Part shown: piece after piece, positions 1,536 to 27,938 of the stretch
Numbering within the stretch: the first letter of the stretch is position 1
How the letters are laid out: each line of letters opens with the position of its first letter
Origin: Candidatus Cloacimonadales bacterium
GTDB lineage: Bacteria; Cloacimonadota; Cloacimonadia; Cloacimonadales; JAFGVF01
Reading direction: 5' to 3'
DNA length: 32,000 nt
Assembly (NCBI GenBank): GCA_963667035.1
Contig: OY762964.1
Coordinates: 2,786,097-2,818,096, forward strand
Notes under the pieces: generated by a model
The model's database searches: none
Seen by the model: only the letters and a program-made list of their open reading frames with translations
Told to the model about the DNA's origin: nothing
Translations under genes and position numbers: made by a program

Positions 1536-1780
1536 AACTACTCAATAAATGACTCACATTTAAATGGCAATCTTTTTTAGTTAAGTTGATGATATTATAT
1601 TATGTAATCCCAGTAGTATTTTTTAGGTAAAGTTTTGACTGTCCTAGGGTGGATACTTTTAAGGGTGACTTGCAAAAGAATTCTTCCGTTTTTGTCTCGT
1701 GATTCTCTCATGACTAACAAACAAATAATTAATATTAATAGGTCACTTTCATCTTACTAAATTTTCACTTCTCAAGTGGG

Positions 1781-5544: not shown

Positions 5545-6216
5545 ATGAAACGTTTGTTAATGATTATAACAGTATTGTATTTAATGTTATCAGGCTGTAC
5601 TGAAGACATAGATAAGATTGACTATACTATGCTTGAAGATGAAATATTCTTTCAACTTGATGAGATTTACAAGAATCCAGAATTGGAGAAAAATATTCCT
5701 AATGATAATTTCGAACATCTCTTAAGTCAGAAAAGAGTAAAACTGTTTTCAAAAAGATTTGAAGCACTCCAAAAAGCAAACAACAAAATTGGTGCATTTT
5801 ACGAGGAATACTACTACAATAGATTTGGTGAACTATTCGGAAATAACTATCCTTTAGAAAGCTATGAGCTGAAATCCTTTGTGAGACTTAGGGAATCAGA
5901 ACTTGGTTTGGCTGAATATGATAATGTTACTGAAGCAGTAGTTGCAGAAGAAACAAAGAAAGACTTCGAGACAGGACATGCAGAGTATAGGCTCGAGACT
6001 AATGATGAATATGTTGTTTACATGACTACTGACGATAATACTGTTTTTAGAGATGATGAAAACTATTATTATACCGGACACATATATTTTGGTGGAATAC
6101 CTAATCCGGTAGGCATGAGAGTAAGAATTCACTATAACAACATATCTGTGTATGACGAAGACAATGAAAAAGTAATCAAAGCATTATTAATAGAGCAACT
6201 TGACCCTAAAAAATAG
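5545..6216 (+). CDS. Hypothetical lipoprotein
   Basis: 223 aa with N-terminal signal and lipobox (MKRLLMIITVLYLMLSGC), preceded by GGAGG RBS. No recognised domain. Confidence 0.8.
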   Translation: MKRLLMIITVLYLMLSGCTEDIDKIDYTMLEDEIFFQLDEIYKNPELEKNIPNDNFEHLLSQKRVKLFSKRFEALQKANNKIGAFYEEYYYNRFGELFGNNYPLESYELKSFVRLRESELGLAEYDNVTEAVVAEETKKDFETGHAEYRLETNDEYVVYMTTDDNTVFRDDENYYYTGHIYFGGIPNPVGMRVRIHYNNISVYDEDNEKVIKALLIEQLDPKK

Positions 6217-6238: not shown

Positions 6239-7702
6239 TTACTCTTTAAAAACTGCTTTCAATTCAGGATTGTTAGGATCAATAGCCTTTGCTATTTTCC
6301 AATTATCGTAGGCTTTTTTACTATCTCCCATTCTGTAGTATATGGAACCTAACTTGATATAGGCTAGAGCCATATTGGGTGCTAAACGGATTGCTGCCTT
6401 GCACTCTAGAACAGCTTCTTCAAGCTTGCTTTGATAGTAGTATTTAGTTGCTTTAGTTATATGAATCAAAGCTTCATTTAAGTCCTTGTAATCCTTTAGC
6501 TCAAGCCGAACTGCATCAAGCTCTTTTGATTTTCTTAAATACTCATCCGTTGAAATGCCTGTAAACACTTTAAGTGTGTCTACGACATAAATAGTATCTT
6601 TGATAATCTTCTCAACTTCAATATAAAGAGTGTCCATTGAAACCGGTTGCATTGACTCAACAACCTTCATAGGTTCTCTGATAATTTCTCTTTGAACTCT
6701 TGGAGGTATATGAGATGCAAGTTTATATTCCTCTGTTGTTGAATTACCGAGTTTAACTTCAAGTCCAATGAAGTGATTGCCATATGGAATCTCTAAATCA
6801 GAAAAGAGGGGGTAACTAAAGCCGTAATCAAGAGAAAGGTCTATTGATTTGGTATTTATCATTTCTCTATTGTTTAACGGATTTCTATACTTCTGAATAT
6901 ACTCTTTCCGTAGAACTAATAGACCTAATCCAAAACTCATTTCATTGTTATTTACACCACTTCTAAAAGCTAGATTTTCAGTAAGTCTATATTCTGTGCC
7001 TAATGAATACGTAAAATCATTGAAGTCTTTTTCCTTGTAGCTGTTGTACGTTACATCAGAGGCTATTAACCATTGAGGAATAATGTTATACGTTGCACCT
7101 AATCCAAACTCTCTTGGCAGGGCATCATCTGCCTCTATTGCTAACTTTGTTTGAAATATATTCCTACTAACAAATCCCATTTGAAAACCGGTTGAGACCA
7201 GATATGCTACCCCGAAGTCCATATCAATAGCGGATTTACTTGTGTCATTGTTCACAAAGAAAGGATCATTAGCTGTATATTCATTTGTTCCGTAGTCGAT
7301 GTTATATAGATTAAGTCCAAAACCAGCTTTCAGTTTGTCACCAAATAGATACGAACCAGCATGAAGGCCTACATGGATTTCGTTATATAAATCCGATTGG
7401 AAAATAGATGAACTGAATGCCGTACTGAATTGATTGCCAATAGGGATTGTTAGAATAACAGCATTGTAATCCAAATTGTCGTTTTCGATACCATAAAGAT
7501 ATGCTCTATTATCTGTTAATAGCGAGAAGTCACTCAAATGAGCCAGTAAAGCAGGATTATAGACAGAAGCAGAACCATCATAGGATTGAGAGATTCCTGT
7601 TTTTCCCATAGAAAAATTTCTTATTCCGGCTTTCTCAAAAGTATAAGCTATTAGGTTAGAAATGATAAACAAAGCAGAAATTATTATTACTATTCTTTTC
7701 AT
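6239..7702 (-). CDS. PorV/PorQ-like (UPF0164/FadL-like) outer-membrane beta-barrel protein with C-terminal TPR region
   Basis: Start trimmed from 7723 to the ATG at 7702 (MKRIVIIISALFIISNLIAYTFEKAG), which has GGGAGG just upstream. N-terminal region has YNPALLA and aromatic beta-strand periodicity. C-terminal TPR-like motifs (YYQSKLEEAVLECKAAIRLAPNMALAYIKLGSIYYRMGDSKKAYDNWKIAKAIDPNNPEL). Confidence 0.75.
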   Translation of the reverse strand: MKRIVIIISALFIISNLIAYTFEKAGIRNFSMGKTGISQSYDGSASVYNPALLAHLSDFSLLTDNRAYLYGIENDNLDYNAVILTIPIGNQFSTAFSSSIFQSDLYNEIHVGLHAGSYLFGDKLKAGFGLNLYNIDYGTNEYTANDPFFVNNDTSKSAIDMDFGVAYLVSTGFQMGFVSRNIFQTKLAIEADDALPREFGLGATYNIIPQWLIASDVTYNSYKEKDFNDFTYSLGTEYRLTENLAFRSGVNNNEMSFGLGLLVLRKEYIQKYRNPLNNREMINTKSIDLSLDYGFSYPLFSDLEIPYGNHFIGLEVKLGNSTTEEYKLASHIPPRVQREIIREPMKVVESMQPVSMDTLYIEVEKIIKDTIYVVDTLKVFTGISTDEYLRKSKELDAVRLELKDYKDLNEALIHITKATKYYYQSKLEEAVLECKAAIRLAPNMALAYIKLGSIYYRMGDSKKAYDNWKIAKAIDPNNPELKAVFKE

Positions 7703-7712
7703 CACTTCCTCC

Positions 7713-10700
7713 CTACTTTGCAACCGTTATTGTGTTTAGATGAACTTTGCCATTAACTTTTACCTGACACAGATAGATTCCCGGAGAAACTAATTTCCCA
7801 CTTTGATTTACTCCTTCCCAAACTGCTGATTTGCAGTTATAAGTCTGATTAGTTTCAGGATTTATATAATTGTATGTGCTACAGGATAACTTCTTAACCT
7901 TCTTACCACTACGATTAAAAACTATACAATCAACCTTATCATTCTGAGAATCAACCGGGATTATTATGCGAGCCTGATCGTTGTAACCATCCCAATTAGG
8001 AGTTATTATATCCGGTATTACTGTTACTCTATCAATATCAGTATTTTTAAAAATGTTTATCGAGAACTGAGCCTCAGCTCCTAATGGTTCAGGCTTTGAT
8101 TTATCATGGGCCGCAATATCAATACTTAATTGTTGTCCCTCATAGTAATAGTTATCAATTATATAAGTTAACAGATAGCCTAAAGAATCAGGATTTGAAT
8201 TATAAGTAGAATTATCAAGATTAAAACTGTTTATGTCTCGGTTGTTAATTTTAAGACTAATCGAGGTTGAGTCTATTCCAGTTCCTTTATCTAGGATAGC
8301 TATTTCTAAAGACTCATTAATCTTAATTTCGCTTTCAGGATATTTAAGTATAAAATATGGTTCAAACTCATCCTCTATTAAGTTAAAACTATACTTATCT
8401 TCAAGAAGATTACCTATATTATCAGCAATAGAATATGAGACTTCAACGGTTTCAGCCCCATTCAAATCATCTGTAATATAGCGTATTTTACACCCATTGT
8501 CTGATAACTCTGTATAAAAATCAAAAATCGGTGTACTATTGATGTTGAAGGAAATGTTGTTTGGATTAACACCGGAAAGGTCATCGTAAAAGTGGAGATA
8601 TATAAGAGAGAAAGGATATCCAAACTCTCCTTCGGCAGGATTAGACATTACAAGATAAGGAGGATCAATATCATTGATTGTAGTAAAGTGGTAATTAATG
8701 CTAGCTTCATTATGATTTGAAGAGTTGTCTATAGCATAAATCTGAATATTGACTGTCTGATTATAATTGAATTTTGATTCCGGTGTGTAGAGAATGGAGT
8801 AACCTGTTGCTTCATTTTCTATAACTTCCTCAATCAGATAATCCTCAATCTGTTGATTATTGATATTAAATAGGATGGAGTTTGGATTTACTCCTGTTTC
8901 TGTATCCATGATTCTGAAAGATATAGAAGTATCAATAGGTATTCCAATGCTTTGTTGAGCAGGATTAAAGCTTTCAAAATACGGTGGAATCATATCATCA
9001 TCTGCAACTACAAAACTAAAATTATAATTAGAGAGTGAATTAGGTATCGGAGCAAGGTCGGAAACAGAAACAACTATTGTGACAGTTTCACCATATTCAT
9101 ACGGCTCATGATTCCATGTAATCCTATAATTACTTTCATTTTCTATTTGCTCTGTTACAGGTATAATCTCAACGTTATTCTCATGAATAACTAAAGAATT
9201 AATATCCACACCTAATCCTGAATCATGAATCTCAAATGACACATTCTCTGTTGCCGGAACTCCAATATCATTATTCTCCGGATGTAAGTTGCTAAGAAAC
9301 GGTGGTTCAATATCAGGTATTACTCTAAAAGAGTATGAAGTATCCATAGAATTGGGAACAGAAGCCAAGTCTTCACAAATAACTCTTACTGTAACCCATT
9401 GGTTGAAATCAAAATTGACACTTGATGTGTATAGAACATCGACTTGCTCTATGGTTTCATTAACTATTATGTACTCGGTAATATCATTTTCATTTATATA
9501 TAATCTAACGGATTTAGGATTGACACCGGTTAACTCGTCTTTCAAAGATAAGGTAATATCTGTATTAGGCAATACGTTTAACTCTTGGTCTGCCGGTGAT
9601 GTTGAAGAAATGTATGGTGTTCCCAAATCTTGAATACAGGTAAAAGTGTATTCTTCCATATTCATAACATTTGCAGGTATATTATAATCTGATGCATTAA
9701 TTTGTACTGTGACAATATTGCTATAATAGTTCTCAGGAGTATGAGAGATTCTATATCCATTTGTGATTTCATCTACCTTTGTTGAGTTCAATCCAATAAT
9801 CTCTACTCCATTAATTCTAATAGAGACGGTTTCTAAATCAATTCCTGAAAGAGTATCAATAATATCTACACTAAATGATGTGTTTTCAGGATTGTCCATA
9901 CTGAACTTCTCCGGATGATGATTCATAGTATAAGGAGGTTCCAGATCAGCTTCTACAGTAAATACGGAAAGAGTATCGATTGAATTTTTTAATGCAGACC
10001 TGTCTTCAATATAAAAGTGTATTAAATGTTCTCCAATCTCAAATATATTATCTGGCATTGGATTCCATGATAATCTTATTCCTTTATCACTCTGAATAGG
10101 TATTATCTCAGTTTCATTGATAATTGAATTGTTATCAAGCTCTAGGATTAGGGAATCTATATTCAAGCCTGATTCATAATCGACAATCTCTATGGTGACG
10201 GGATGATTTCTTGCAATTACTTCCTCATAGGTTGGATCAATATACAAAATAACTGGAGATGAAATATCCTCTAAACATTGAAAAGAGTAAGCAAAAGTAC
10301 TCATAGCATTCGGACTTTCAGCAAAATCAGAAGCACTAATTAAAACATTTACCGTTTGTTCATAAGCGAAGTTTGCTGAGGGATTGATTTCGATAAAGTA
10401 ATCGTTAGGAGTTCCATAATAAGAAAATTCAGAATCATCCTGAGTATAAATATTCCCATCAATATTGACTTTGATAGTAGATAAATCTACTCCTTCACCT
10501 AAATCTAAAATATGGAATGATATATTTGTATCTACACTTACGTCAGTATCTCCCGGAGCCGGATTCCATGTACTAGTATAAGGAGGATCCGTATCCTGAC
10601 GAGTAAAAAAACGATAAGCTGTTGTAGGAATTGTGAAGCCATCATTATCATTCGCTACAACAGAGACATCAATAACTTGATTGTAACCAAAGAATTCTTC

Positions 10701-12374
10701 AGGATTTATAGCAATTCTATAACTATTTAGAGCTCCTGAGTAAGTGAGATTAGGAGAGTTTATGTCATAGATTGTTCCTGCAATGACTACTCTTATTGAG
10801 TTGATATCTATCTCTTCATCATCTGTTAATGAAAATGATACTGGCTGAGCAATATCTACATCACTAGCTCCATTTGATGGAGTTGGATTGCTAAAGTAGG
10901 GAATCCCTCCAAGTATTGTTGTGGCACTTCCAAAGTTATTATATCCTTGAGGTGCAGCAATAGTGATGTCCATCTTGTCATCATTATTAAAGTCATGAAC
11001 TACAAAATCAGAACCAAGCCTATCATCTACAGAGTTTCCAATTATCCTCATATCAGGATTACTATCTTCTATGTTAATGTTTATAGGAGGATTGTCTTGA
11101 CCATAAAGAATATCAACTTTACCACTTCCAATACCATTTATTGTTGTTGCCCCAGAAGTTCCGATTATTAAATCTTGAATTTGGTCTCCTGATAAGTCTT
11201 TAATTAACAAAGTACTTCCAAAATTATCATCAGTTTCTTCTGCCGTTATAACCATATTGGCATTATTCTGATTCAATTCAATACTTGAGGGTAGAGAGTT
11301 ACTACCAAACAACAGATAGATTCTACCCCGTTCCAGATCTGTAGAAAAATCCGTGATTACTAAATCATCGTTGTTATCATGGTTATAATCTCCACAAGCC
11401 ATTGAATTCCCAAAACGGGAATTCTGCTCTCGTGCCTTTATCGTTAGATTAACATAATTGGAATTACCAAGTGATATCTCTTGGTATGGCATACTGGTTC
11501 TACCATAAACAACATATATAGCACCACTATTATTGTATATACCATTATCATAACCCGGAGCAGATACTAAAAGATCATTAAATAAATCATTGTTTATATT
11601 ACCGCTAGAAAAAGAAAATGAGGAATTGTCATTAGAGTTTAAACCTAGAAATACAGTTATGTTATCCAACTCATTAATAGTACTTTGTTGAGGATAAGTG
11701 GAATTGCTCCACAGAATATAAGTCTTTCCGCAATTATTTGCTACATTACTATCAGCAGTCGGAGCACCAATAATTATTTCGGATTGTGAGTCATTATTTA
11801 TATCTGTTAGTATTAGACTTGAGCCAATTAAGTCATTTTGAGAAGAGCCGATAAAAGTTTGAGTTTCGTATTCAGCCAAATCAATAAGTGAAGGAAGTTG
11901 ATTACTTCCCTTTATAACATAGACTTTTCCAGTTTGGTCCAGTATATCAGTGCCTGCATAAGGTGCTCCAATAACCAGGTCTGAATATATATCCGAATCA
12001 ATGAGGCCGGAATCTATTGATTTTCCCAATTGATCGTTGTTTTCTGCTCCGACTATAGTTACATCTGCATTTGAGATTGATAGATTAATGTATTCGTAAT
12101 TAGGAATTGATTCATTACCAAAAAAAATGTAAACAGCACCGGCTGAATTCCTTCCTTGAAAATCAGAAAAAGGAGCAGAGCATATCAAGTCGCTTATTCC
12201 ATCACCATTAATATCACCACTACAAATATCGTAAGAAAAGAAATCAAAGGCTGTGTCTCCAGATACGCAATGGTTACCATTCCATTGTGATAAGTCATAA
12301 TTTACAAATGAATCCAAATCAAGTAAAGCTATGAATACGATAAATATAAGTGCGTAAACTTTTTTTGTGCTCAT
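7713..12374 (-). CDS. Large secreted surface protein: signal peptide, FG-GAP/integrin-alpha-like repeats, multiple Ig-like (Big_5-like) repeats, gliding/FlgD-like C-terminal domain
   Basis: 1553 aa. Multiple FG-GAP-type motifs (SGDINGDGISDLICSAPFSD, CGDYNHDNNDDLVIT, DLSGDQIQDLIIGTSG, DFNNDDKMDITIAAPQG). Repeats of ~95-105 aa of the type PP(Y/F)...P...V....ISF.I.D...GV....I.......I. C-terminus ITPNWDGYNDQARI...VFNRSGKKVKKL...WEGVNQSGKLVSPGIYLCQVKVNGKVHLNTITVAK. Confidence 0.85.
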   Translation of the reverse strand: MSTKKVYALIFIVFIALLDLDSFVNYDLSQWNGNHCVSGDTAFDFFSYDICSGDINGDGISDLICSAPFSDFQGRNSAGAVYIFFGNESIPNYEYINLSISNADVTIVGAENNDQLGKSIDSGLIDSDIYSDLVIGAPYAGTDILDQTGKVYVIKGSNQLPSLIDLAEYETQTFIGSSQNDLIGSSLILTDINNDSQSEIIIGAPTADSNVANNCGKTYILWSNSTYPQQSTINELDNITVFLGLNSNDNSSFSFSSGNINNDLFNDLLVSAPGYDNGIYNNSGAIYVVYGRTSMPYQEISLGNSNYVNLTIKAREQNSRFGNSMACGDYNHDNNDDLVITDFSTDLERGRIYLLFGSNSLPSSIELNQNNANMVITAEETDDNFGSTLLIKDLSGDQIQDLIIGTSGATTINGIGSGKVDILYGQDNPPININIEDSNPDMRIIGNSVDDRLGSDFVVHDFNNDDKMDITIAAPQGYNNFGSATTILGGIPYFSNPTPSNGASDVDIAQPVSFSLTDDEEIDINSIRVVIAGTIYDINSPNLTYSGALNSYRIAINPEEFFGYNQVIDVSVVANDNDGFTIPTTAYRFFTRQDTDPPYTSTWNPAPGDTDVSVDTNISFHILDLGEGVDLSTIKVNIDGNIYTQDDSEFSYYGTPNDYFIEINPSANFAYEQTVNVLISASDFAESPNAMSTFAYSFQCLEDISSPVILYIDPTYEEVIARNHPVTIEIVDYESGLNIDSLILELDNNSIINETEIIPIQSDKGIRLSWNPMPDNIFEIGEHLIHFYIEDRSALKNSIDTLSVFTVEADLEPPYTMNHHPEKFSMDNPENTSFSVDIIDTLSGIDLETVSIRINGVEIIGLNSTKVDEITNGYRISHTPENYYSNIVTVQINASDYNIPANVMNMEEYTFTCIQDLGTPYISSTSPADQELNVLPNTDITLSLKDELTGVNPKSVRLYINENDITEYIIVNETIEQVDVLYTSSVNFDFNQWVTVRVICEDLASVPNSMDTSYSFRVIPDIEPPFLSNLHPENNDIGVPATENVSFEIHDSGLGVDINSLVIHENNVEIIPVTEQIENESNYRITWNHEPYEYGETVTIVVSVSDLAPIPNSLSNYNFSFVVADDDMIPPYFESFNPAQQSIGIPIDTSISFRIMDTETGVNPNSILFNINNQQIEDYLIEEVIENEATGYSILYTPESKFNYNQTVNIQIYAIDNSSNHNEASINYHFTTINDIDPPYLVMSNPAEGEFGYPFSLIYLHFYDDLSGVNPNNISFNINSTPIFDFYTELSDNGCKIRYITDDLNGAETVEVSYSIADNIGNLLEDKYSFNLIEDEFEPYFILKYPESEIKINESLEIAILDKGTGIDSTSISLKINNRDINSFNLDNSTYNSNPDSLGYLLTYIIDNYYYEGQQLSIDIAAHDKSKPEPLGAEAQFSINIFKNTDIDRVTVIPDIITPNWDGYNDQARIIIPVDSQNDKVDCIVFNRSGKKVKKLSCSTYNYINPETNQTYNCKSAVWEGVNQSGKLVSPGIYLCQVKVNGKVHLNTITVAK

Positions 12375-12448
12375 GATAACTCCTTAAAAACGACTTTAAT
12401 AAGTCCTGGAATGCATAAAGTCAAACAAAAAAAATATTAATTTTTTAC

Positions 12449-12477
12449 TTGCCACATAAAAGAGAATTGAATTTAAT
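12449..12477 (+). promoter_or_regulatory. Candidate sigma70-like promoter of the motor/EPS operon
   Basis: TTGCCA (12449-12454), exact 17-bp spacer, TTTAAT (12472-12477), then RBS GGGAGG (12489-12494) and ATG at 12500. Confidence 0.55.
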
Positions 12478-12499
12478 CCAATTATCTTGGGAGGATTGG

Positions 12500-13879
12500 A
12501 TGATAAGGAAAACTGTTATTTACTTGTTGATTATCTCTGTGCTCTGTTGTGTCGTTGAGTTATATTCAGAAACAACAAGCTCTTTAGCAGAGTTAAAAGC
12601 TGAAACTGAACTTGCAAAACGCATTGAAGACCTAGTGAAACCATTTACTGAAAAAGTTATTGTTGGAGTTGATCTTGATTTAAGATATAATCTATTTGAG
12701 ACTAACACTTCAGATTTCAAGTTCGATCCCAATATGAGCCTACCCGGTTTACCGGTAGGTAAAACAGATAATAGAATAGTTGAGAATGATCTTGAAGATG
12801 TAGTACCAACTGAAATATTAAGAAAGAAAATTAGTATTAAAGTTCCATTAGATACTTCCAAAGAAGTAATCGAATTTCTCAATCAAGAAATACATAATAT
12901 TATTACAATAGATGAGAATAAAGGGGATATATTGCAGATAACCCCTGAATCTAATCTAACCAAGTATATCCGTTCAAAGAATAACAGGTTACAGACTTAC
13001 TTTTTTCTCACCTTAATTGCAGTTATGATTTTAATGCTGAATAATATACGTAGCGGTATGAGAATAATTGCCAAGTCAATGAGAAAAATCAAAATCACTA
13101 ACCTTGAAGTTCTAAATAAATCAAAAACACCGGAGATAATTAATAATAGTACTTCTGAACAAACTCATCCCAGAATTCCTCTTGAACCTATAAAAGTAAA
13201 AGTTCTTCAAGATGAAGAAGAAGATTTGATGCCAACGAGATTCGATTTCTTAGAAGATCTTTCGGATGCTAACTTGTTAGAAGTTTTAAGAGAAGAGAAT
13301 CCCGAGGATATAGCATTTATTGTTTCTCAAATCTCTCCAGAAAAAGCAGGAGCTGTTTTCCAGAATCTAAAAGAGAATAAAGAACAAGTAATAAATGCAA
13401 TGTTAGAAAATCAATCAAAGCTGAAGCTAGACCTTAAAATCCTAGTTGTTAATTTATATAATAAGTATCTGGAAATTATGGAGAAAGAAGCAATTCAGTT
13501 AGAGGGTGTAGGTCTACTCGCAAAAATAATAAACAGTTCGGATTATGAGAGTTCTAACATTCTATATGAATCCATAAATAATCTTGATAAAGATAAGGCT
13601 AAAGAGATTGCGAAAAAGATATTCTTATTGGATGATGTCTTATTGCTGTCTAATATTCAAATTGAACAGATTTCTCTTGAATTTACTCATCTAGAGTTAG
13701 TTAAATTCTTAGCCTGTGTGAATACAAGAATAAAGAACAAATTCTTCTCTCAACTTTCGGAAAGAGCAACAATGATTTTTAAAGAGGACATAGAATCTCT
13801 AGGTAAGCTTTCGGAAGGAGAAAAGAGAGTTATATTGAATCACTCATTGAGAAAAATTCGTAATATTCTAAATTTCTAA
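12500..13879 (+). CDS. FliF/FliG-like chimeric membrane protein (signal peptide, FliF RBM-like periplasmic domain, one TM, FliG middle and C-terminal-like domains)
   Basis: Start moved from 12449 to ATG 12500 (MIRKTVIYLLIISVLCC) with GGGAGG RBS. FliF-like AKRIEDLVKPFTEKVIVGVDLDLRY...RKKISIKVPLDTSKEVIEFLNQEIHNIITIDENKGDILQI. TM LQTYFFLTLIAVMILMLNNI. FliG-like NPEDIAFIVSQISPEKAGAVFQNL and GVGLLAKIINSSDYESSNILYESINNLDKDKAKEIAKKIFLLDDVLLLSNIQIEQI...KFFSQLSERATMIFKEDIESLG. Confidence 0.8.
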   Translation: MIRKTVIYLLIISVLCCVVELYSETTSSLAELKAETELAKRIEDLVKPFTEKVIVGVDLDLRYNLFETNTSDFKFDPNMSLPGLPVGKTDNRIVENDLEDVVPTEILRKKISIKVPLDTSKEVIEFLNQEIHNIITIDENKGDILQITPESNLTKYIRSKNNRLQTYFFLTLIAVMILMLNNIRSGMRIIAKSMRKIKITNLEVLNKSKTPEIINNSTSEQTHPRIPLEPIKVKVLQDEEEDLMPTRFDFLEDLSDANLLEVLREENPEDIAFIVSQISPEKAGAVFQNLKENKEQVINAMLENQSKLKLDLKILVVNLYNKYLEIMEKEAIQLEGVGLLAKIINSSDYESSNILYESINNLDKDKAKEIAKKIFLLDDVLLLSNIQIEQISLEFTHLELVKFLACVNTRIKNKFFSQLSERATMIFKEDIESLGKLSEGEKRVILNHSLRKIRNILNF

Positions 13880-13889
13880 AAGGTTTTTT

Positions 13890-14627
13890 ATGAAAATAAG
13901 TACACTATTAGGTATAGTTTTAAGTATAGTGATTATTGTTTTTGCCATTAATGCAAAAGGTAGTTTAGTAGAATACTTTGATCCAATAGCTTTGATGGTA
14001 ACATTAGGGGGAACTGTTTCAGCTCTTTTGGCAACTTACTCGTTTTCTAGCCTTAAAGATGCAATAGAATCGTTGAAAGTAGTTTATTTTACACCGCCCA
14101 TACCGCATGACGATATGGTCGAGATAATGATTGGAGTGAGTAAGGATTCTCGTTCATTAAGTTTTATGGAAATTCAAAGCTATGAAGAAGTGCAAAATAT
14201 CCCATTTCTTAAAACAACTATTACAATGTTAGCTGATAATCTTCCCAAAGACAAAATTACTGATTTTCTTGAGTCTGAAAGTAGATCAATACTTAGAAGA
14301 AGAATTCGTTCAGCTAAGATATTCGGAGTTGCTGGAAATCTGTCACCAATGTTTGGTATGATTGGTACAGTAATTGGACTAATAGCTATGCTTGGCAATA
14401 TGAGTGATCCTTCTGTTGTCCCTAGAGCTATGAGTCTTGCTCTCGTTACAACTCTATATGGATTAATTCTATCTGTGATAATTTTTAGACCAATAGCAGG
14501 TAAGATATCTTCAGGAGCAGAATATGACTATATCAACAGAGAAATCATTATTCAAGGTATCTCAGGAATTATTGAAAAACGCAACTCGGAGATAATTAAG
14601 ACTGAGTTGACTAAAATTTATGCATAA
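13890..14627 (+). CDS. motA: MotA/PomA-type stator protein
   Basis: 245 aa, four TM pattern, DPIALMVTLGGT, LSPMFGMIGTVIGLIAMLGNMSDPSVVPRAMSLALVTTLYG. Confidence 0.93.
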   Translation: MKISTLLGIVLSIVIIVFAINAKGSLVEYFDPIALMVTLGGTVSALLATYSFSSLKDAIESLKVVYFTPPIPHDDMVEIMIGVSKDSRSLSFMEIQSYEEVQNIPFLKTTITMLADNLPKDKITDFLESESRSILRRRIRSAKIFGVAGNLSPMFGMIGTVIGLIAMLGNMSDPSVVPRAMSLALVTTLYGLILSVIIFRPIAGKISSGAEYDYINREIIIQGISGIIEKRNSEIIKTELTKIYA

Positions 14628-15276
14628 TAAAGACAACAATAAAGTTAATCAAGTTTTGTCTGATATCGAGGATAGCCTCATAAATACTCCAGACAATGAT
14701 TTCTCAGGATTTTATTCAGCTTTAGTTCCTTATGCTGATATGATGACTTTACTACTCATTTTCTTCGTTTTCTATTTTGTCATAGGAGATACAGAAACAG
14801 GGTGGAAGGCTATTGCCGAGATACAAAAGAAGAAACTTAATAACAATATCCAATCAGAATCCATAGCAGAAACTGAGATGTATGAAGGTGATATTAGCGA
14901 AAAGGTAATATCAATACCGGGGAATATCCTCTTTGAATCTGGTGAGGCAAACCTTAGATGGTTGTCTCAAGATACACTTATTAAAATTGCTATGGATATA
15001 AAGAAGATCGTTAAAGACGATGATAGCTGGCAAATTCGTATAGAAGGACACACAGACAATGTTCCTATTGCCAATAATAAATATGCTTCAAACTGGGAGC
15101 TTTCTACAGCAAGAGCTTTGAGCATTGTGAAGTTTTTTATTAGAAATGGCTACTTTACTGCAGATCAACTACAGATTATGGGGTATGGAGAATTCAAACC
15201 TCTAGTACCAAATGATACAGAAGAGAATCGAAATAGAAACAGACGCGTTGAGATTAAAATCAGTCAGAAAAGATAG
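14620..15276 (+). CDS. motB: MotB/PomB-type stator protein with OmpA-like peptidoglycan-binding domain
   Basis: 218 aa. Single TM with conserved Asp (YADMMTLLLIFFVFYF). OmpA domain IEGHTDNVPI...NWELSTARALSIVKFFI...GYGEFKPLVPNDTEENRNRNRRVEIKI. Start overlaps motA by 8 nt. Confidence 0.93.
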   Translation: MHNKDNNKVNQVLSDIEDSLINTPDNDFSGFYSALVPYADMMTLLLIFFVFYFVIGDTETGWKAIAEIQKKKLNNNIQSESIAETEMYEGDISEKVISIPGNILFESGEANLRWLSQDTLIKIAMDIKKIVKDDDSWQIRIEGHTDNVPIANNKYASNWELSTARALSIVKFFIRNGYFTADQLQIMGYGEFKPLVPNDTEENRNRNRRVEIKISQKR

Positions 15277-15284
15277 GAGGGATA

Positions 15285-16121
15285 TTGATAGATTATTATA
15301 GTTTTTGGGATATCAAAGAACCACCTTTTGAAGATAACAATGATCCTAAGTTTTTCTATAAAAGTATAGATCATTATGAAGCACTTGAAAGACTGAAGTA
15401 TGTAATTAACTCAAGAAGCATGAACATTGGACTGCTTAGTGGAGAAATAGGAACCGGAAAAACCATTACAAAAATGGTTTTGATTTCTGAACTTAAGAAA
15501 CAAAACCCACATAATGTTATTGTAAACATTAACTCATCCTTGTTCACTTTTAATGAGATTATTACAGAAATACTCTCTCAAATCATGGATATAGATCCAA
15601 TAAATTTACCAACTAAGAGATACTATTTGTTTAAGAAACTTGAAAGATATATTGAAGACGAGTTATTATACACTAAAGGATTAATTTACATATTTTTAGA
15701 TGAAGCTCAGAAGATTACTCCTAAAGACTTGGATTTACTAAAAGATTTAACTAACATTAACTATAATTATTTCTGTCCTGTAAAGCTAATGCTTATTGGA
15801 CAACCGGCTATATTGAGAAATGTGAAAAAACTTCCACAAGTTGATCAAAGAATTGGTATAAGATTTCATCTAAACAATATGAATGAGGAAGATACTAATG
15901 CATATATTGATTACAGGCTTAAAGTATCCGGATCTCAAAAAAAGATTTTTAGTGATAGTGCCCTATCTTTAGTTTATAAAAAAACTTCAGGAATTCCAAG
16001 AGAAATTAACAGAGCATGCAAAATTGCAATGGATGTAGCCTCTGCTGAAAAAGAAAGCCTCATATCAGGAGAAGTTATGGAAATGGTTTTTAATGATTTA
16101 TCTTACCATGGAAGAGAATGA
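15285..16121 (+). CDS. ExeA/GspA-like AAA ATPase (type seen with XrtA/PEP-CTERM EPS loci)
   Basis: 278 aa with TTG start and AGGAGG RBS. N-terminal FWDIKEPPFEDNNDPKFFYKS, Walker A GEIGTGKT, Walker B YIFLDEAQ, C-terminal TSGIPREINRACKIAM. Confidence 0.85.
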   Translation: MIDYYSFWDIKEPPFEDNNDPKFFYKSIDHYEALERLKYVINSRSMNIGLLSGEIGTGKTITKMVLISELKKQNPHNVIVNINSSLFTFNEIITEILSQIMDIDPINLPTKRYYLFKKLERYIEDELLYTKGLIYIFLDEAQKITPKDLDLLKDLTNINYNYFCPVKLMLIGQPAILRNVKKLPQVDQRIGIRFHLNNMNEEDTNAYIDYRLKVSGSQKKIFSDSALSLVYKKTSGIPREINRACKIAMDVASAEKESLISGEVMEMVFNDLSYHGRE

Positions 16122-18679
16122 TAATGCCTAAGAAAAGACTCTCTATTTCAAATATTAGAAGTAAGAAAAGCGAGAATGAATCAACTGAAGTTATACTTCC
16201 TGAGTTAGAAGATAATCAGGCTGATTCCGACACTAAACTTGTTAAAGAAATTCCTAAATCAGCAAACCAAGGTGATGGGAATATCGATAATCCAAGAGTG
16301 AAAACAGAAACTCAAGATGATCTAAAATCATTAAAGCATAATCCAACAGGATTTATCTCTAATCACAATGAGGAAAGCGAACCTTCGCTACTAGAATATC
16401 TTGAAGTTGGATACCGAAACAAATGGTTAATTCTAATCATTACTCTTTTGTGTATTATTGGGGCATATGTTTTACACATTAGAAAAGTTCCTTTATTTAG
16501 AACTAGAACTAAAATATTCATCCATGATGATTCAATGGAGCTGGAAGTAATTAATAATAAGCCATTCATAAAAGGGAAAATGGATGTTGCTACTTGGATG
16601 GAAATACTAAAGACTAGAGATGTCTGTAAAAGAGTCTCTGCATACATGAATAATACTATATCTCCCCAAGAAGCTAAGTTGATGATTAACTGTACTAGCT
16701 CAAAAAATGAAGAAAACATCATTTCAATCACCTCAACTAATCCTAATCCAGTTATAGCTACGGACGTTGCTAATAATTTCTATCGTGCACTTAGAGATTA
16801 TGATACGGAAGCCAACAAGCGTAACATTAACAAAACCATAGATTATCTTGAGCATCAACTAAGAGACAAAAATCACGAGCTTGATTCCTTAAACACAGCA
16901 GTAAAAGCTCTTTATGCTAATATAGATTTTAAAAACTACGGTGATAATTTGCATGAAAACTTAAAGCGTTTAAATGCTTTCAAACATAATTTAACAACTG
17001 TAGAAGTAGAGTTAGAAGCTGAGAATGCAAACATAAAAGTTTTGAACTCCAAGCTTAAAGAGGAAGATTCAACCTATATTACTGAAACAACTTATAGTGA
17101 ACCACTTAAAATTAAACTGATGAATCTTGAAGTTGATTTAGCTAGAGCTTTAACTACCTATGGGGAGAATCATCCAAAAGTTATAAGTCTACGTACTAAC
17201 ATAGCAAACATTAAGAAACTTATTTCAGATGGTGTTGAAGAAAGCATTCAAATGAGGAGTATTGGTCAAAATCCGTTAAAACAACAGATTCTAAAGGATC
17301 TCGTTGAATCTCAGACCAGGTCAATATCTTTAACCCAAAAACGTAATGCTTTGAGAAAAGTAATAAAAGAAATGGAGTTGTCTCCTAAAGATAACTCTAT
17401 GCTGGTAAATAAGCAAAGAGAGAAAGATGCTTTAATACTTACCATCACTAACCTTCAAAACCAGATTAATAAAGTCAGATTGAATGCTAACATAGATTTT
17501 AACAGAATAGTTCAATTGGAAGAGGCAACTATTCCGCAGAAACCAATTGGTAAAAATCTACTCTTAATGCTTCTTAATGGATTAGGATTGGGTGTTGCTT
17601 TAAGTAGCATCTTAGTTTTTTTACTTACTAGGTTTGATAACAAGATTAATACTATTAATAAACTTCTTCATGTTTATCCGAACATTCCTATCATAGGTAC
17701 AATACCTAGGTTCAAGTTTAGTCCTATTAAGATTGATGCTCAAACTTCTAATCTAACAGAAGAGGAATTACAGAACAAGGATTTGGTAAACAGTGTTTTC
17801 AATGAAATTGCTTTAAATTTCCGATACCTGATTCTTAACAAAAGGAATAATGCTATTGCAGTGGTGAGTTCTTTAAAAGGCGAAGGCAAATCAACTATAA
17901 CGAACTATTTAGCAGTTGCTTTAGCTAATAATAATACTAAGACTCTTCTTGTTGATGCAGATTTCTATAATCCTCAGATATCTCGATATTACAGTAAAAC
18001 TAAAGCATTCGGATTCTCCGAAGTTCTATCTGAACAAATACCATTGCATGAAGTGATAATAAATACTAAAATTGATAATCTTATGATACTGCCATCAGGC
18101 AAGTGTCCTCCAAGTGTTGGACATCTTTATCACAGTGACAGATTTAAAGAGATTATACAAGAAGTAAAGTCTGTTTGCGATATCATAATTATTGATACTC
18201 CTGCTTCAATGTATTTCCCGGAGACATCAGTACTTGTTAATGAGATGGATTGTGTTCTCCTAACTGCAAAGATGGGATTTACTACAACAATCAGTTGTAA
18301 AAAATTACTAAAGAAGATACAAATCCTAGATACCAAAATTGGGGGAGTAATTGCAAATTCAATGTTAAAAGAGGTTTTCGATAAAACCTATAGTGATTAC
18401 TACAATTATAGTTATGAATATTACTCCCGATACCATAACTACACAAACAATCAAAAGCAGAATTCTTTAACAAAACATATACCTACAGATTTGTTTAAAG
18501 TAGTAAAAAAGAAGGATAAGTTGGAAAGAACATTCTTGCAGGAAGGTGAAATTCTAGACTATGAAGCTCAATCTGAAACAAATTTCGGAAGAATAAATAA
18601 AGATAAAACCTTTGGGCTATTTCTAAAAAAATTAAAACGTTTCCTTGGTCTTGATGATGACTTTGATTTAGGAGAATAG
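16118..18679 (+). CDS. Polysaccharide chain-length determinant (Wzz domain) fused to BY-kinase (bacterial tyrosine autokinase)
   Basis: 853 aa. Wzz-like N-terminal TM (YLEVGYRNKWLILIITLLCIIGAYVL), coiled coil, P-rich TM2 (ATIPQKPIGKNLLLMLLNGLGLG). Kinase motifs VVSSLKGEGKSTITNYLAVAL, TLLVDADFYNP and IIIIDTPAS. Tyr cluster YSDYYNYSYEYYSRYHNY. Confidence 0.9.
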   Translation: MIMPKKRLSISNIRSKKSENESTEVILPELEDNQADSDTKLVKEIPKSANQGDGNIDNPRVKTETQDDLKSLKHNPTGFISNHNEESEPSLLEYLEVGYRNKWLILIITLLCIIGAYVLHIRKVPLFRTRTKIFIHDDSMELEVINNKPFIKGKMDVATWMEILKTRDVCKRVSAYMNNTISPQEAKLMINCTSSKNEENIISITSTNPNPVIATDVANNFYRALRDYDTEANKRNINKTIDYLEHQLRDKNHELDSLNTAVKALYANIDFKNYGDNLHENLKRLNAFKHNLTTVEVELEAENANIKVLNSKLKEEDSTYITETTYSEPLKIKLMNLEVDLARALTTYGENHPKVISLRTNIANIKKLISDGVEESIQMRSIGQNPLKQQILKDLVESQTRSISLTQKRNALRKVIKEMELSPKDNSMLVNKQREKDALILTITNLQNQINKVRLNANIDFNRIVQLEEATIPQKPIGKNLLLMLLNGLGLGVALSSILVFLLTRFDNKINTINKLLHVYPNIPIIGTIPRFKFSPIKIDAQTSNLTEEELQNKDLVNSVFNEIALNFRYLILNKRNNAIAVVSSLKGEGKSTITNYLAVALANNNTKTLLVDADFYNPQISRYYSKTKAFGFSEVLSEQIPLHEVIINTKIDNLMILPSGKCPPSVGHLYHSDRFKEIIQEVKSVCDIIIIDTPASMYFPETSVLVNEMDCVLLTAKMGFTTTISCKKLLKKIQILDTKIGGVIANSMLKEVFDKTYSDYYNYSYEYYSRYHNYTNNQKQNSLTKHIPTDLFKVVKKKDKLERTFLQEGEILDYEAQSETNFGRINKDKTFGLFLKKLKRFLGLDDDFDLGE

Positions 18680-19761
18680 TGAAGATAAAAAAAGATAGAA
18701 TTAAGCGTAAGCATATATATGCTATAACATATCTTTTGATTATAATAGCTACAATCATTATACTTTTATTATTACCTAGGTCATGTAGCTATTCAGGTAC
18801 TATTTATGCCGGAGTCGGAGGATGTGTTTATGATCCCGGTGTATATCCTATGTACAAAGGTATGACTTTATACGAGTTGATTCGTAAAGCAGATGGTATG
18901 AAACCTAATGCTGACTTAGATCGCTTTAATCCGGATATGATTATTGAGCCATGGGAATCATATTGTATTCCCTGCAAAATAAAAAAAGACCCTCCTGTTA
19001 AACAAATTATTGCAGAAGTAGCTCCTTATGCCCCTAAACGAGAGCTTAATGATGTAGACCGCTTCACGATTATCTATGCAGGTTTACCAAGAACTTTTAT
19101 ACTTCTAGATGTTTATCCGAATTACGGACTCATATCAGCAACACATATTCCTTGGTTTACAGCAGTACATGATTTAGTCGGAAATGTAAAGACTCTCTAT
19201 GAAATGTATTTAATCGGAGGAACTGAAGCATTGGTAAGGTCAGTGTCTGATGTTACCCAGACAAATATTGACTACTACTTCGCTCAGGATAGACCTGCTT
19301 GGATTAAATTTATTGATTATCTTGGTGGAGTAAAAGTAGACATTCCGGTTGAATTTGCAAAGCAATACAGAGTAAATAGTGGTATTCATATAATTGATGG
19401 ATACACTTCTTGGTTCTATATTACCTTTATTTCCAAAGAAATGAGAAGAATAGATTATAAAACCGGCTCAATGAATAGAATCACTCGTCAAAAACTTTTT
19501 ATGGAAGAGCTATATGCCAAATTTAAGAATCTGGATTTCTTTAGAAGTAGTCAGATTGGAAAATCCATATTAACAGATGCTGAAACGAATCTCTCTGCAG
19601 CTCAAGCCATAGAACTATCAAACAAAGTCAGGAAGATGTCTTCAAACAATCTAAAGCTTTTCACTTATCCGGGCGTTATCATTAATTATAATGGAGAGAA
19701 CTATTGGGAAGTTAATCCTATCAGATATAAAAATAAAATCTTTAATGAGATAAATAATTGA
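18679..19761 (+). CDS. SLBB-like plus LytR-CpsA-Psr (LCP)-like membrane protein, atypical active site
   Basis: 360 aa, GTG start overlapping the previous stop (TAGTG). N-terminal TM, SLBB-like GCVYDPGVYPMYKGMTLYELIRKADGMKPNADLDRF. LCP-like PRTFILLDVYPNYGLISATHIP, TQTNIDYYFAQDRPAWIKFIDYLGGVKVDIP and NRITRQKLFMEEL. Confidence 0.65.
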   Translation: MKIKKDRIKRKHIYAITYLLIIIATIIILLLLPRSCSYSGTIYAGVGGCVYDPGVYPMYKGMTLYELIRKADGMKPNADLDRFNPDMIIEPWESYCIPCKIKKDPPVKQIIAEVAPYAPKRELNDVDRFTIIYAGLPRTFILLDVYPNYGLISATHIPWFTAVHDLVGNVKTLYEMYLIGGTEALVRSVSDVTQTNIDYYFAQDRPAWIKFIDYLGGVKVDIPVEFAKQYRVNSGIHIIDGYTSWFYITFISKEMRRIDYKTGSMNRITRQKLFMEELYAKFKNLDFFRSSQIGKSILTDAETNLSAAQAIELSNKVRKMSSNNLKLFTYPGVIINYNGENYWEVNPIRYKNKIFNEINN

Positions 19762-19768
19762 GGTATTC

Positions 19769-20491
19769 ATGCGTATTATTCTTGTTACTTTACTTTTTTT
19801 AACTACATTTTCGGTATTTGCCCAACAAACTTATATTCCCCGTATGGCAAAAGATGACTTTTTTAACGGTGAAACTGATCTATCTAACATACCTGATTCG
19901 CTATTGGTCAGTACAGAAGATGAATACATTCTTAGAAAAGGTGACAGAATATCAATTTATGTAATGGATCATTTAGAGTTCTCAAAGCCTCAAATAATGA
20001 TATTACCTGACGGAAGTATTGAGTATCCTTTGATAGGAACTCTGAGAGTTGCAGGACTTAACTCTGCTCAACTAAGGGCTATTATTGAAGAACGTTTACG
20101 TCCTTACGTGACTATACCCATTGTTACTATCTATATTGAAAAAATATTCGGAGAGAAACTCAATATAATTGGCTATGTTAATGGACCTGGAGAATATCAG
20201 CTTTACGAACCTATAAGAATCACTGATGCTATTGCAATGGCAAAAGGTATTATAAACATTAGAGAAGTTAAAACTATAAGAGTTATTCGTAAAGATGGAG
20301 ACGTGTTTAACGTAAGCCTTAAACATATATGGTTTAATGATGATGATGAGACAAACTACAGAGAAAATCTTCTTCTTAATCCGGGAGATACGCTTATTGT
20401 ACCTCCTCCTCGAAGATTTAACTGGAGAATGTATACTGCAATAATTGCAACTCTATCACTTATTCTTCAGATATATATAGCTACTAACTAA
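19769..20491 (+). CDS. Wza-family polysaccharide biosynthesis/export protein (Poly_export + SLBB)
   Basis: 240 aa, signal peptide MRIILVTLLFLTTFSVFAQ. YILRKGDRISIYVMDHLEFSKPQIMILPDGSIEYPLIGTLRVAGLNSAQLRAIIEERLRPYV, IIGYVNGPGEYQL and LLNPGDTLIVPPP, with C-terminal hydrophobic helix. Confidence 0.88.
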   Translation: MRIILVTLLFLTTFSVFAQQTYIPRMAKDDFFNGETDLSNIPDSLLVSTEDEYILRKGDRISIYVMDHLEFSKPQIMILPDGSIEYPLIGTLRVAGLNSAQLRAIIEERLRPYVTIPIVTIYIEKIFGEKLNIIGYVNGPGEYQLYEPIRITDAIAMAKGIINIREVKTIRVIRKDGDVFNVSLKHIWFNDDDETNYRENLLLNPGDTLIVPPPRRFNWRMYTAIIATLSLILQIYIATN

Positions 20492-27692: not shown

Positions 27693-27938
27693 AAACACCT
27701 CCTTTATTTTCATTACTTCATTACTTCATCACAATAGTAATGTCAAGTTCAAACAGAATTTTAATGTGTTAAGATTATGGTATATCATATAAGTACATTG
27801 AAACCTAATATAATTAGCTAATCTATAGCAGATTTTGTTATGTAAAATTGCTTATTATTTGTCTCTATGCTCTGTCACAATTGATAAATGTAACATAAGA
27901 ATTGATTCAGAATTACATGTCCATTTCTTGATAATTTG

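Follow-up and report, generated by a model that had tools for sequence, protein, structure and literature searches.

A 32,000-nucleotide window of a Candidatus Cloacimonadales genome (assembly GCA_963667035.1, contig OY762964.1, positions 2,786,097–2,818,096; AT-rich, approximately 33% GC) contains a gene that is almost certainly a natural chimera of the flagellar proteins FliF and FliG. As judged from sequence comparisons, the encoded polypeptide of 459 amino acids (aa) joins the ring-building domain of FliF to the torque-receiving domains of FliG. Its neighbours encode a stator of the flagellar type (MotA, MotB), a giant surface protein and an outer-membrane beta-barrel. We favour the reading that the fusion and MotAB form a stand-alone minimal rotor and stator outside the flagellum, at a probability of roughly 60%.

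Gene model and protein family

The fusion gene starts at the ATG at position 12500, with GGAGG 7 nt upstream, and stops at 13879. The longest listed open reading frame (ORF) begins at a TTG at 12449; this start was rejected, as the homologues likewise begin with MIRK or MK, at the position of ATG 12500. From the N- to the C-terminus, the protein consists of a hydrophobic segment, a periplasmic domain, a transmembrane (TM) helix, a disordered linker, FliG_M and FliG_C. The first-pass annotation of this DNA, made from the letters and translated ORFs only, had described such a chimera, and its segments lie where it had placed them: a hydrophobic N-terminus (aa 2–22), a periplasmic domain at 12587–12952 (aa 30–151) and a single TM segment at 12989–13048 (aa 164–183), which is covered by a helix at aa 161–196 in the AlphaFold2 (AF2) model. 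The N-terminal segment is predicted to be either a signal peptide or a counterpart of the first TM helix of FliF (TM1); in many relatives it ends in ...AQ.

A word-indexed protein search returned three full-length relatives, all from Candidatus Cloacimonadales metagenome-assembled genomes (MAGs). An exhaustive search with a profile of aa 21–205 against 1.84 billion representatives (E ≤ 1e-3) matched 45 clusters, most of them proteins of 444–537 aa with the match at the same N-terminal position; the remainder were seven shorter fragments and one protein of 2377 aa. The 38 full-length members could be aligned end to end (alignment A4). All have a hydrophobic N-terminus, a domain of approximately 130 aa, one TM helix, a linker of variable length, FliG_M and FliG_C, and the ~130-aa domain has an almost invariant loop, SLPGLPV, and the motif ...RGDxLxI at its C-terminus. 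Pfam detected FliG_C in 38/38 members, FliG_M in 25/38 and YscJ_FliF_C (PF08345) in 11/38. Across Cloacimonadales, the fusion proteins were 40–68% identical. A frameshift or assembly artefact was rejected, given that the architecture was present in 38 full-length cluster representatives and approximately 30 independent loci.

FliF-like periplasmic domain

Homology of the periplasmic domain to RBM3, the last ring-building motif (RBM) of FliF, is supported and is significant for the family, not for the single sequence. Pfam and NCBIfam found nothing for aa 1–240 of the window protein, FliF included. Among eight Cloacimonadales sequences only two gave weak YscJ_FliF_C matches, and the periplasmic-domain profile built from these eight alone (A2) did not find FliF in the PDB, the top matches being chance hits to salivary proteins (E approximately 0.3). 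The profile of the domain from the 38 members (A5) was searched with hmmsearch against 177,635 distinct PDB sequences. The five best matches were all FliF, and nothing else fell below E = 0.4. The best one was FliF 9yh6 (4.3e-6, profile positions 6–127), and Vibrio FliF 8z5s matched with 3e-3. Salmonella FliF 6scn (4e-4) was aligned in two pieces, profile positions 9–40 with FliF 241–274 and positions 95–128 with FliF 404–437 ('...RGDTLNVVNSPF'), and these coincide with both stretches that the first-pass annotation had singled out as FliF-like. In the 11 members with a YscJ_FliF_C match, it always lay at approximately positions 83–147 of the profile, the strand–helix–strand part after the loop. 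P0047 was the sole member above the curated cut-off (30.9 bits against 23.8; 4.5e-7).

An hhalign comparison with an alignment of 18 FliF sequences was colinear with FliF 236–415 (RBM3a, collar, RBM3b; E 1.4e-4, probability 53%), with a deletion of approximately 60 residues inside the FliF collar. Against single FliF sequences the hhalign probabilities were negligible; the local matches nonetheless fell at the right places.

An earlier AF2 model from four sequences had a pLDDT of 50.7 and was unusable; the model built with the 38-sequence alignment (m041d75cfbac3) had an overall pLDDT of 79.7. Its periplasmic elements (helix 29–46, strands 54–63 and 104–116, helix 121–135 and strand 144–150; pLDDT approximately 88–92) follow the order helix, strand, insertion, strand, helix, strand, which is the RBM topology with an insert at the position of the FliF beta-collar. 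The motif SLPGLPVGKTD lies within this insertion (aa 80–90, nt 12737–12769), and S80–P85 were invariant in 29 diverse members. In a Foldseek search of the PDB, FliG chains took ranks 1–13 (best 5.6e-9) and FliF MS-ring, S-ring or RBM3 chains ranks 14–31 (3.4e-3 to 7.5e-2, probability 1.0, target TM-score up to 0.48). LysM, SPOR and secretin folds, any of which the first-pass annotation had named as grounds for giving up the FliF assignment, as would have been a lack of FliF matches, were absent from the Foldseek and PDB profile results for this domain. Its proposed resemblance to the last FliF ring-building motif was thus borne out at family level by the A5 search, the YscJ_FliF_C matches, hhalign and Foldseek, and by sequence the domain groups specifically with FliF RBM3.

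FliG domains and lost parts

In the C-terminal half, FliG_M (3.5e-7) and FliG_C (1.8e-13) both exceeded the Pfam curated cut-offs. NCBIfam TIGR00207 (fliG) matched aa 241–437 with 3.9e-21, at 75.7 bits against an equivalog cut-off of 226.7. In a phmmer search of the PDB, A. aeolicus FliG 3hjl was the first match (1.1e-18, aa 253–444 with chain residues 115–307), followed by further FliG structures; the closest true FliGs were approximately 25% identical to the fusion. Together with the Foldseek ranking, these matches confirm both FliG domains of the first-pass annotation. Since they cover aa 241–444 only, i.e. FliG_M and FliG_C, the FliG half corresponds to a FliG that lacks the N-terminal domain.

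The torque helix, SQLSERAtmIfKEDiE, lies at aa 417–434 (nt 13748–13801) and is invariant in Cloacimonadales as SQLSERAxxIxKEDxE. R422 and E429 were at least 90% conserved in the 38 members, and the residue after E429 was D or E. In the torque helix of 3hjl and 1lkv, these positions (R422 and E429–430) align to the arginine and the two paired acidic residues, and we take R422, E429 and the next residue to be the equivalents of E. coli FliG R281, D288 and D289. The three E. coli residues are cited as a set in the literature (PMC12505986). The equivalent of K264 was a lysine in six of the eight Cloacimonadales sequences.

Several parts of FliF and FliG are missing. RBM1 and RBM2 (PF01514, YscJ_FliF) were not matched in any family member, and the approximately 130 periplasmic residues of the fusion are all accounted for by RBM3; because RBM1 and RBM2 are absent, there is no room for an export gate. 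The TM region, with the motif NNIRxxxRIIAKSxRxIK conserved in Cloacimonadales, is followed by a disordered linker of approximately 50 aa that runs into FliG_M, and the C-terminal cytoplasmic helices with which FliF binds FliG_N are absent. The linker takes the place of the FliF C-tail and FliG_N; its length is variable, and it is Gly-rich in GC-rich relatives. FliG_N (PF14842) had no Pfam match in the window protein, and the low-confidence linker (aa 198–243) is too short for this domain, in agreement with the earlier proposal that FliG_N was replaced by a direct tether. Weak FliG_N matches in some relatives were discounted for their positions inside the M/C region. The FliM-binding motif EHPQR is degenerate (EENPED in the window, NENPKE elsewhere) and variable across the family. 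The fusion has thus retained the parts for ring building and torque reception and dropped those for housing a type III export gate and for binding a switch complex. The covalent link would entail the 1:1 stoichiometry of FliF and FliG that the first-pass annotation had suggested, provided that a ring forms.

Three metagenomic FliG-domain proteins of 580–646 aa (P0051–P0053) contained FliG_M and FliG_C, two of them also FliG_N; they may be further non-canonical FliG architectures.

Stator genes

Downstream of the fusion gene, motA follows after 10 nt and overlaps motB by 8 nt. MotA matched the NCBIfam models for MotP, PomA and MotA with 1e-43 to 1e-38, those for MotP and PomA with 1e-43 to 1e-42, against 0.0085 or worse for TolQ and ExbB, and aligned end to end with Vibrio PomA (8bri, 1.1e-32). 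As the scores of MotA and MotB were under the NCBIfam equivalog cut-offs, we regard both as divergent members of the flagellar-type stator. The equivalent of PomA R88 was invariant in Cloacimonadales (SKDSR) and was found in five of six distant lineages, and MotA has an acidic residue near the position of PomA E96/E97. In MotB, the motif of the TM aspartate, VPY[A/S]DMMTLLL (VPYADMMTLLL in the window), was invariant, as were the plug and the peptidoglycan-binding domain. The alignments thus show a predicted stator with intact channel and anchoring residues and conserved rotor–stator charges.

Membership in Zorya or another defence system was rejected, as PADLOC returned no ZorA for MotA and nothing for the fusion, and matched MotB to ZorB merely as a generic MotB homologue. 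The stator genes varied at two distant loci: L015 carried two tandem MotB paralogues after MotA (12182–13511), and in L016 a 692-aa Bac_transf sugar transferase was encoded between motA and motB (11434–15271).

Gene neighbourhood

In approximately 30 loci of Cloacimonadota, KSB1 and Electryoneota, the fusion gene was found near genes for a PomA-like MotA, MotB, an FG-GAP/Ig protein of approximately 1550 aa and a barrel with TPRs. Giant protein, barrel, fusion, MotA and MotB occurred together in every locus with enough flanking sequence, in several gene orders. The arrangement in the window, where the giant and barrel genes are divergent from the fusion gene and 125 bp away, was repeated in Cloacimonadales homologues, and in most loci the barrel gene was immediately beside the fusion gene. 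Locus L014, from a GC-rich 'bacterium', had the order fusion, MotA, MotB, giant, barrel, without polysaccharide genes, and L019 the order giant, barrel, fusion, MotA, MotB. A longer series was found in L016 (giant, Wza, two response regulators, barrel, AAA_22, Wzz-like, kinase, LytR, fusion, MotA, sugar transferase, MotB). L015 had the fusion, MotA, two MotBs and a TPR protein, with a 3103-aa FG-GAP protein ending 3.8 kb upstream, and L020 a protein with the same C-terminal tail as the giant protein, a TPR protein, the fusion and MotA. A metagenome scan added 21 further loci; those with enough flank mostly carried giant, barrel, fusion, MotA and MotB. In L035 and L037 the order was Wzc, LytR, Wza, fusion, MotA, MotB, giant, barrel, with AAA_22 before Wzc in L037.

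In the window, the fusion gene, motA, motB and the genes for AAA_22, Wzc, LytR and Wza form a tight operon with gaps of at most 10 nt or overlaps. The domains of the Wza/Wzc polysaccharide-export locus were present, with scores mostly under the equivalog cut-offs. Polysaccharide export was rejected as a core partner, as its genes were absent in several lineages; the AAA_22 gene was present in Cloacimonadales, L016 and L037 and absent at L014 and L019. The core therefore consists of five genes, to which certain lineages have added those for polysaccharide export. Neither this module nor its non-flagellar context was part of the first-pass account.

The giant protein matched Pfam FG-GAP (1e-34) and Big_5. 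Its C-terminus scored 24.8 bits with CHU_C (cut-off 27), and TIGR04131 gave 19.5 bits in the window and 33.6 bits in L014 (cut-off 35). The barrel aligned to PorV in the PDB (6h3i, 9.8e-6), and PorP_SprF matched two of eight barrel homologues (best 1.6e-7). The L014 barrel matched NCBIfam PorV_fam (7.7e-8) and T9SS_PorP_fam (6.6e-11) below threshold; for the barrels, T9SS_PorP_fam scored 42 bits (cut-off 90.55) and PorV_fam 32–56 bits (cut-off 90). The C-terminal 100 aa of the L014 and L019 barrels, which form the TPR tails, had weak NCBIfam matches to the spirochaete flagellar collar protein FlcA (9e-4 to 6e-3). PilW was matched by all three barrels, those of the window (C-terminal 100 aa at 6239–6540), L014 and L019, and Tgl by those of the window and L019. 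The FlcA, PilW and Tgl matches probably reflect generic TPR similarity.

Hosts and flagellar genes

Named members of the family came from Candidatus Cloacimonadota (many), candidate division KSB1 and Ca. Electryonea clarkiae (Electryoneota). In databases they are annotated as 'hypothetical protein', 'FliG C-terminal domain-containing protein' or, by JGI, 'flagellar motor switch protein FliG'. No flagellar gene lay within 10 kb of the fusion in approximately 30 loci, a result that covers these neighbourhoods only. Flagellar genes were reported to be missing from 41 of 46 Cloacimonadota genomes (bioRxiv 10.1101/2021.10.08.463351). By the KO annotations in a survey of 558 genomes, Cloacimonadota clade 2 had motA in 73 genomes (41%) and motB in 71 (PMC13082233 Table S8), against fliF in 25, fliG in 29, fliC in 27 and flgB in 23, i.e. 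13–16% (PMC13082233 Supplementary Dataset 2, Table S8). At least 44 genomes of the clade therefore have MotAB without a flagellum, which is consistent with the module.

Proposed function

We propose that the RBM3 domain would sit on the periplasmic face of the inner membrane, with the TM helix and a flexible tether leading to FliG_M and FliG_C. Many copies would assemble via RBM3 into a ring, as FliF does, and beneath the membrane such a ring would carry one FliG_C torque helix per subunit. Powered by ion flow, the peptidoglycan-anchored units of PomA-type MotA and MotB, whose genes are co-transcribed with the fusion gene, would push on these helices and turn the ring. These steps make up the rotor–stator reading that we put at about 60%. 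What the ring would drive is a more tentative matter. The five-gene module could be an unrecognised surface machine in which the torque core of a flagellum has no export apparatus, rod, hook or filament and acts on an outer-membrane adhesin instead; we hold this extension possible, with the odds somewhat against it. The output would then cross the periplasm to the barrel–adhesin pair, probably via the collar-like SLPGLPV loop and the TPRs, and the barrel would anchor the adhesin with its C-terminal domain (CTD) of putative type B as PorP-like proteins do for such cargo. Proteins with type-B CTDs are anchored by adjacent PorP-like proteins (PMC9143113). The adhesin would be moved or tensioned, in a gliding-like or surface-remodelling role. 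By analogy with flagellar motors whose stators are scaffolded by TPR proteins, and in view of the weak FlcA-like similarity, the TPR barrel could instead position MotB rather than take the output.

Several observations weigh against this proposal. Ring formation is predicted from sequence and a model of the monomer, in which the collar-like insertion (aa 64–103) had a low pLDDT, and the hhalign probability against the FliF alignment was only 53%. Of the residues at the rotor–stator interface, the equivalent of E. coli FliG K264 is only partly retained, that of R297 is lost, and the acidic residue of MotA sits at no fixed alignment column. The coupling of the putative ring to the TPR barrel is conjectural, and TPR proteins in other motors scaffold stators and do not take output. 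All assignments of the giant protein and the barrel to type IX secretion (T9SS) were below curated cut-offs, though they consistently pointed to T9SS type-B and PorP. Lastly, a complete flagellar set was reported for Ca. Electryonea clarkiae (PMC9324843), the host of one family member; the module can therefore coexist with flagella.

An alternative that we consider unlikely, though less so than those below, is that the fusion and MotAB act as an energiser for the secretion, insertion or maturation of the giant adhesin, or for Wzc/Wza polysaccharide export in the lineages that carry it. Such a role would parallel GldLM powering the T9SS and AglRQS powering Nfs spore-coat assembly. The giant protein needs a secretion route, its partner barrel resembles PorV/PorP shuttle and anchor proteins, and the tight Cloacimonadales operon with AAA_22, Wzc, LytR and Wza, accessory genes that recur in L016, L035 and L037, would fit an export function. 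The polysaccharide genes are missing, however, near L014, L019, L022, L026, L030 and L034, whereas the adhesin and barrel are always there, and known secretion energisers use the periplasm-spanning GldM, TonB or TolA rather than a FliG torque ring.

More doubtful still is a non-rotating membrane anchor that binds MotAB and serves as a reservoir of stators, as a clutch or as a mechanosensor converting adhesin load into ion flux or signalling, for which no ring is needed. The degenerate EHPQR motif and the absence of FliG_N mean that the usual C-ring organisation is missing, and the vicinity contains sensory genes (for a CHASE2 cyclase in the window and L018, for hybrid kinases in L002 and L003). 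Yet the part of FliF that was retained is precisely the ring-building RBM3 with its collar position, the module has a dedicated MotAB, and it appears in genomes seemingly without flagella, hence without flagellar stators to regulate.

The last two readings are poorly supported. That the fusion is a part, or even the rotor itself, of a genuine though atypical flagellum seems very improbable: no flagellar gene was found within 10 kb, the export-gate-holding RBM1/RBM2 and the FliM-binding motif are absent, and both the TIGR00207 score and the identity of approximately 25% set the fusion apart from true FliGs, even though the three motor proteins all have a flagellar origin, flagella occur in some Cloacimonadota and in Ca. 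Electryonea, and JGI labels one member a flagellar motor switch protein. A decaying, functionless relic of a lost flagellum, as might be expected in a phylum most of whose members have lost flagella, can be practically dismissed in view of the intact ORFs, 40–68% identity across Cloacimonadales, invariant functional residues, conservation of the architecture across three candidate phyla and strict synteny with non-flagellar partners.

Comparison with known systems

The fusion shares with the flagellar rotor (FliF and FliG with MotAB or PomAB) the RBM3 fold and its insertion where the collar lies, the TM helix after RBM3, FliG_M, FliG_C and the R...(D/E)(D/E) pattern of the torque helix, and its gene is likewise associated with an adjacent PomA-type MotA and a MotB with plug and OmpA domain. 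It differs in being a single polypeptide without RBM1/RBM2, the FliG-binding C-terminal helices of FliF and FliG_N, with a degenerate EHPQR motif and a collar insertion approximately 60 residues shorter, and in the lack of nearby genes for export apparatus, rod, hook and filament. The same helix–strand–strand–helix–strand fold occurs in the RBM rings of injectisome SctJ and SctD, which lack the insertion; the SctJ-type 2y9j_Y was a weak match (Foldseek rank 44). SpoIIIAG forms an RBM ring with an insertion and has the same ring-building fold. These proteins neither carry FliG domains nor have MotAB as a partner. The Agl-Glt gliding and Nfs systems of Myxococcus use a proton-channel motor that is linked via TPR proteins and outer-membrane barrels to an adhesin and to polysaccharide exported by Wza/Wzc. 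That system resembles the module in concept; its motor is TolQR-like and not MotAB-like, and it is not known to include homologues of FliG or FliF.

In Salmonella and Vibrio, laboratory FliF-FliG fusions form S-rings of 34–35 subunits (PDB 8z4d/8z4g; PMC10941966, PMC11481574). They have the same covalent 1:1 link, and because they form 34/35-mer S-rings, a covalent fusion is compatible with ring assembly. These proteins are engineered or arose spontaneously, are full-length (945 aa) and work in a normal flagellum, whereas the protein described here is natural, half as long and encoded in a non-flagellar context. Gliding Bacteroidota with a T9SS (GldLM, SprB, SprF/PorP-like proteins) likewise combine an ion-driven inner-membrane motor with a very large adhesin, whose CTD is of type B there and putatively so here, and with a neighbouring PorP/PorV-like barrel (PMC9143113, PMC8986121). 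The motors are unrelated, with MotAB and a putative FliG ring here and GldL5M2 with a periplasm-spanning GldM there, and the barrel here bears C-terminal TPRs in addition to having sub-threshold T9SS assignments.

A search of full-text literature, whose coverage excluded subscription-only papers, found engineered fusions only; neither a truncated FliF-FliG fusion of natural origin nor the five-gene module was described there. All parts belong to known superfamilies, and the architecture and the module appear undescribed. A 2025 survey reported rotor proteins in genomes without a filament, left their function open and considered another function possible (PMC12199754).

Textbooks treat FliF, FliG and MotAB of the flagellar type as hallmarks of the flagellum; here they occur as a single fused rotor subunit with a stator in at least three candidate phyla. 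Matches to KEGG or Pfam MotA, MotB and FliG in Cloacimonadota, KSB1 and related MAGs should not be taken as evidence of swimming. In one survey motA was three times as frequent as fliF (PMC13082233), and KEGG-based statements on 'flagellar assembly' or motility in Cloacimonadota may partly reflect a non-flagellar module. A natural RBM3-FliG_MC fusion with its own stator outside the flagellum would surprise a motor specialist. If the ring rotates, this would be the smallest natural rotor–stator known, with 1:1 stoichiometry and no switch complex, and tractable for cryo-electron microscopy or single-molecule torque measurements. The system bears on flagellar evolution by asking what use part of a flagellar motor could be; if the surface-machine reading is true, it would be a fourth way of moving over surfaces or of actuating adhesins, or an extant and useful 'half motor' that informs the evolution of the flagellum.

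Other genes in the window

The features of the fusion and its module in the window are listed in Table 1. A scan for sigma-70 promoters and terminators was uninformative, with counts no higher than in shuffled sequences, and Rfam and tRNA scans of the window were empty.

Table 1. Coordinates of the fusion gene, its protein segments and neighbouring genes in the 32,000-nucleotide window.
Feature	Position	Strand	Evidence
FliF(RBM3)-FliG(M+C) fusion ORF, 459 aa	12500..13879	+	ORF listing, ribosome-binding site, domain matches, AF2 model
N-terminal hydrophobic helix, aa 2–22	12503..12565	+	AF2 helix 2–22
RBM3a: helix 29–46 and strand 54–63	12584..12688	+	pLDDT ~88–90; aligns to Salmonella FliF 241–274
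Insertion between strands 1 and 2, aa 64–103	12689..12808	+	FliF beta-collar position, ~60 residues shorter
RBM3b: strand 104–116, helix 121–135, strand 144–150, ...GDxLxI end	12809..12949	+	AF2; YscJ_FliF_C positions 83–147 in relatives
TM helix and conserved juxtamembrane amphipathic helix, aa 161–196	12980..13087	+	AF2 helix 161–196
Cytoplasmic flexible linker, aa 197–247	13088..13240	+	pLDDT < 50 for aa 198–243
FliG middle domain	13241..13489	+	Pfam FliG_M aa 258–296, 3.5e-7; aligns to 3hjl, 1lkv
FliG C-terminal domain	13505..13867	+	Pfam FliG_C aa 357–438, 1.8e-13
MotA, flagellar (PomA/MotP) type, 245 aa	13890..14627	+	NCBIfam, PomA 8bri alignment
MotB, plug, TM Asp and OmpA-type peptidoglycan-binding domain	14620..15276	+	Pfam MotB_plug, OmpA; NCBIfam MotD/MotB/MotS
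AAA_22 ATPase (PEP-CTERM-associated/ExeA-like), accessory	15285..16121	+	TIGR03015 3.4e-41, sub-threshold
Wzc-like chain-length determinant and tyrosine autokinase, accessory	16118..18679	+	Pfam Wzz, AAA_31; TIGR01007
LytR_cpsA_psr protein with SLBB domain, accessory	18679..19761	+	Domain match
Wza-like polysaccharide export protein, accessory	19769..20491	+	Pfam Poly_export, SLBB_2
Giant surface protein, 1553 aa	7713..12374	-	Signal peptide, FG-GAP repeats, Big_5 Ig-like repeats, T9SS type-B-like CTD
Outer-membrane beta-barrel, PorV/PorQ/PorP-SprF/FadL type, 494 aa, C-terminal periplasmic TPRs	6239..7723	-	Pfam TraF_2, Toluene_X, TPR

At the start of the window, a CHASE2 sensor fused to an adenylate/guanylate cyclase is encoded at 3–1541 (minus strand) and runs off the edge. 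A CHASE2/Guanylate_cyc protein was also found in L018 (952–3111), approximately 5 kb upstream of the distant family member P0013, and genes for hybrid PAS histidine kinases border the modules of L002 and L003. Such cyclases and hybrid kinases may be a recurrent sensory input. Between the cyclase and barrel genes lie an ORF for a 1104-aa protein (2014–5328, minus strand) with a match to DUF4901 (YcdB/YcdC repeat) only, and a 223-aa ORF without a match (5545–6216, plus strand). Homologues of the two were not found beside the distant module copies L014–L020, the only copies covered for the 223-aa ORF.

After the Wza-like gene, six Cloacimonadales genomes (L006–L011, approximately 18250–21060, plus strand) encode a conserved 921-aa protein without a Pfam match. 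The window and L005 lack it and instead encode a MatE/Polysacc_synt transporter on the opposite strand. Further downstream in the window, a radical-SAM ORF with a TTG start (25148–26167, minus strand) overlaps the end of an ORF for a DUF2207 membrane protein (26037–27713, minus strand) by 131 nt, and the true radical-SAM start is probably further downstream. At the other edge, an ORF at 28454–31999 (plus strand) runs off the window end. It encodes more than 1180 aa of a second giant surface protein in these 32 kb, which is secreted and contains PPC and MAM domains as well as several Ig-like ones (HYDIN/DUF1573).

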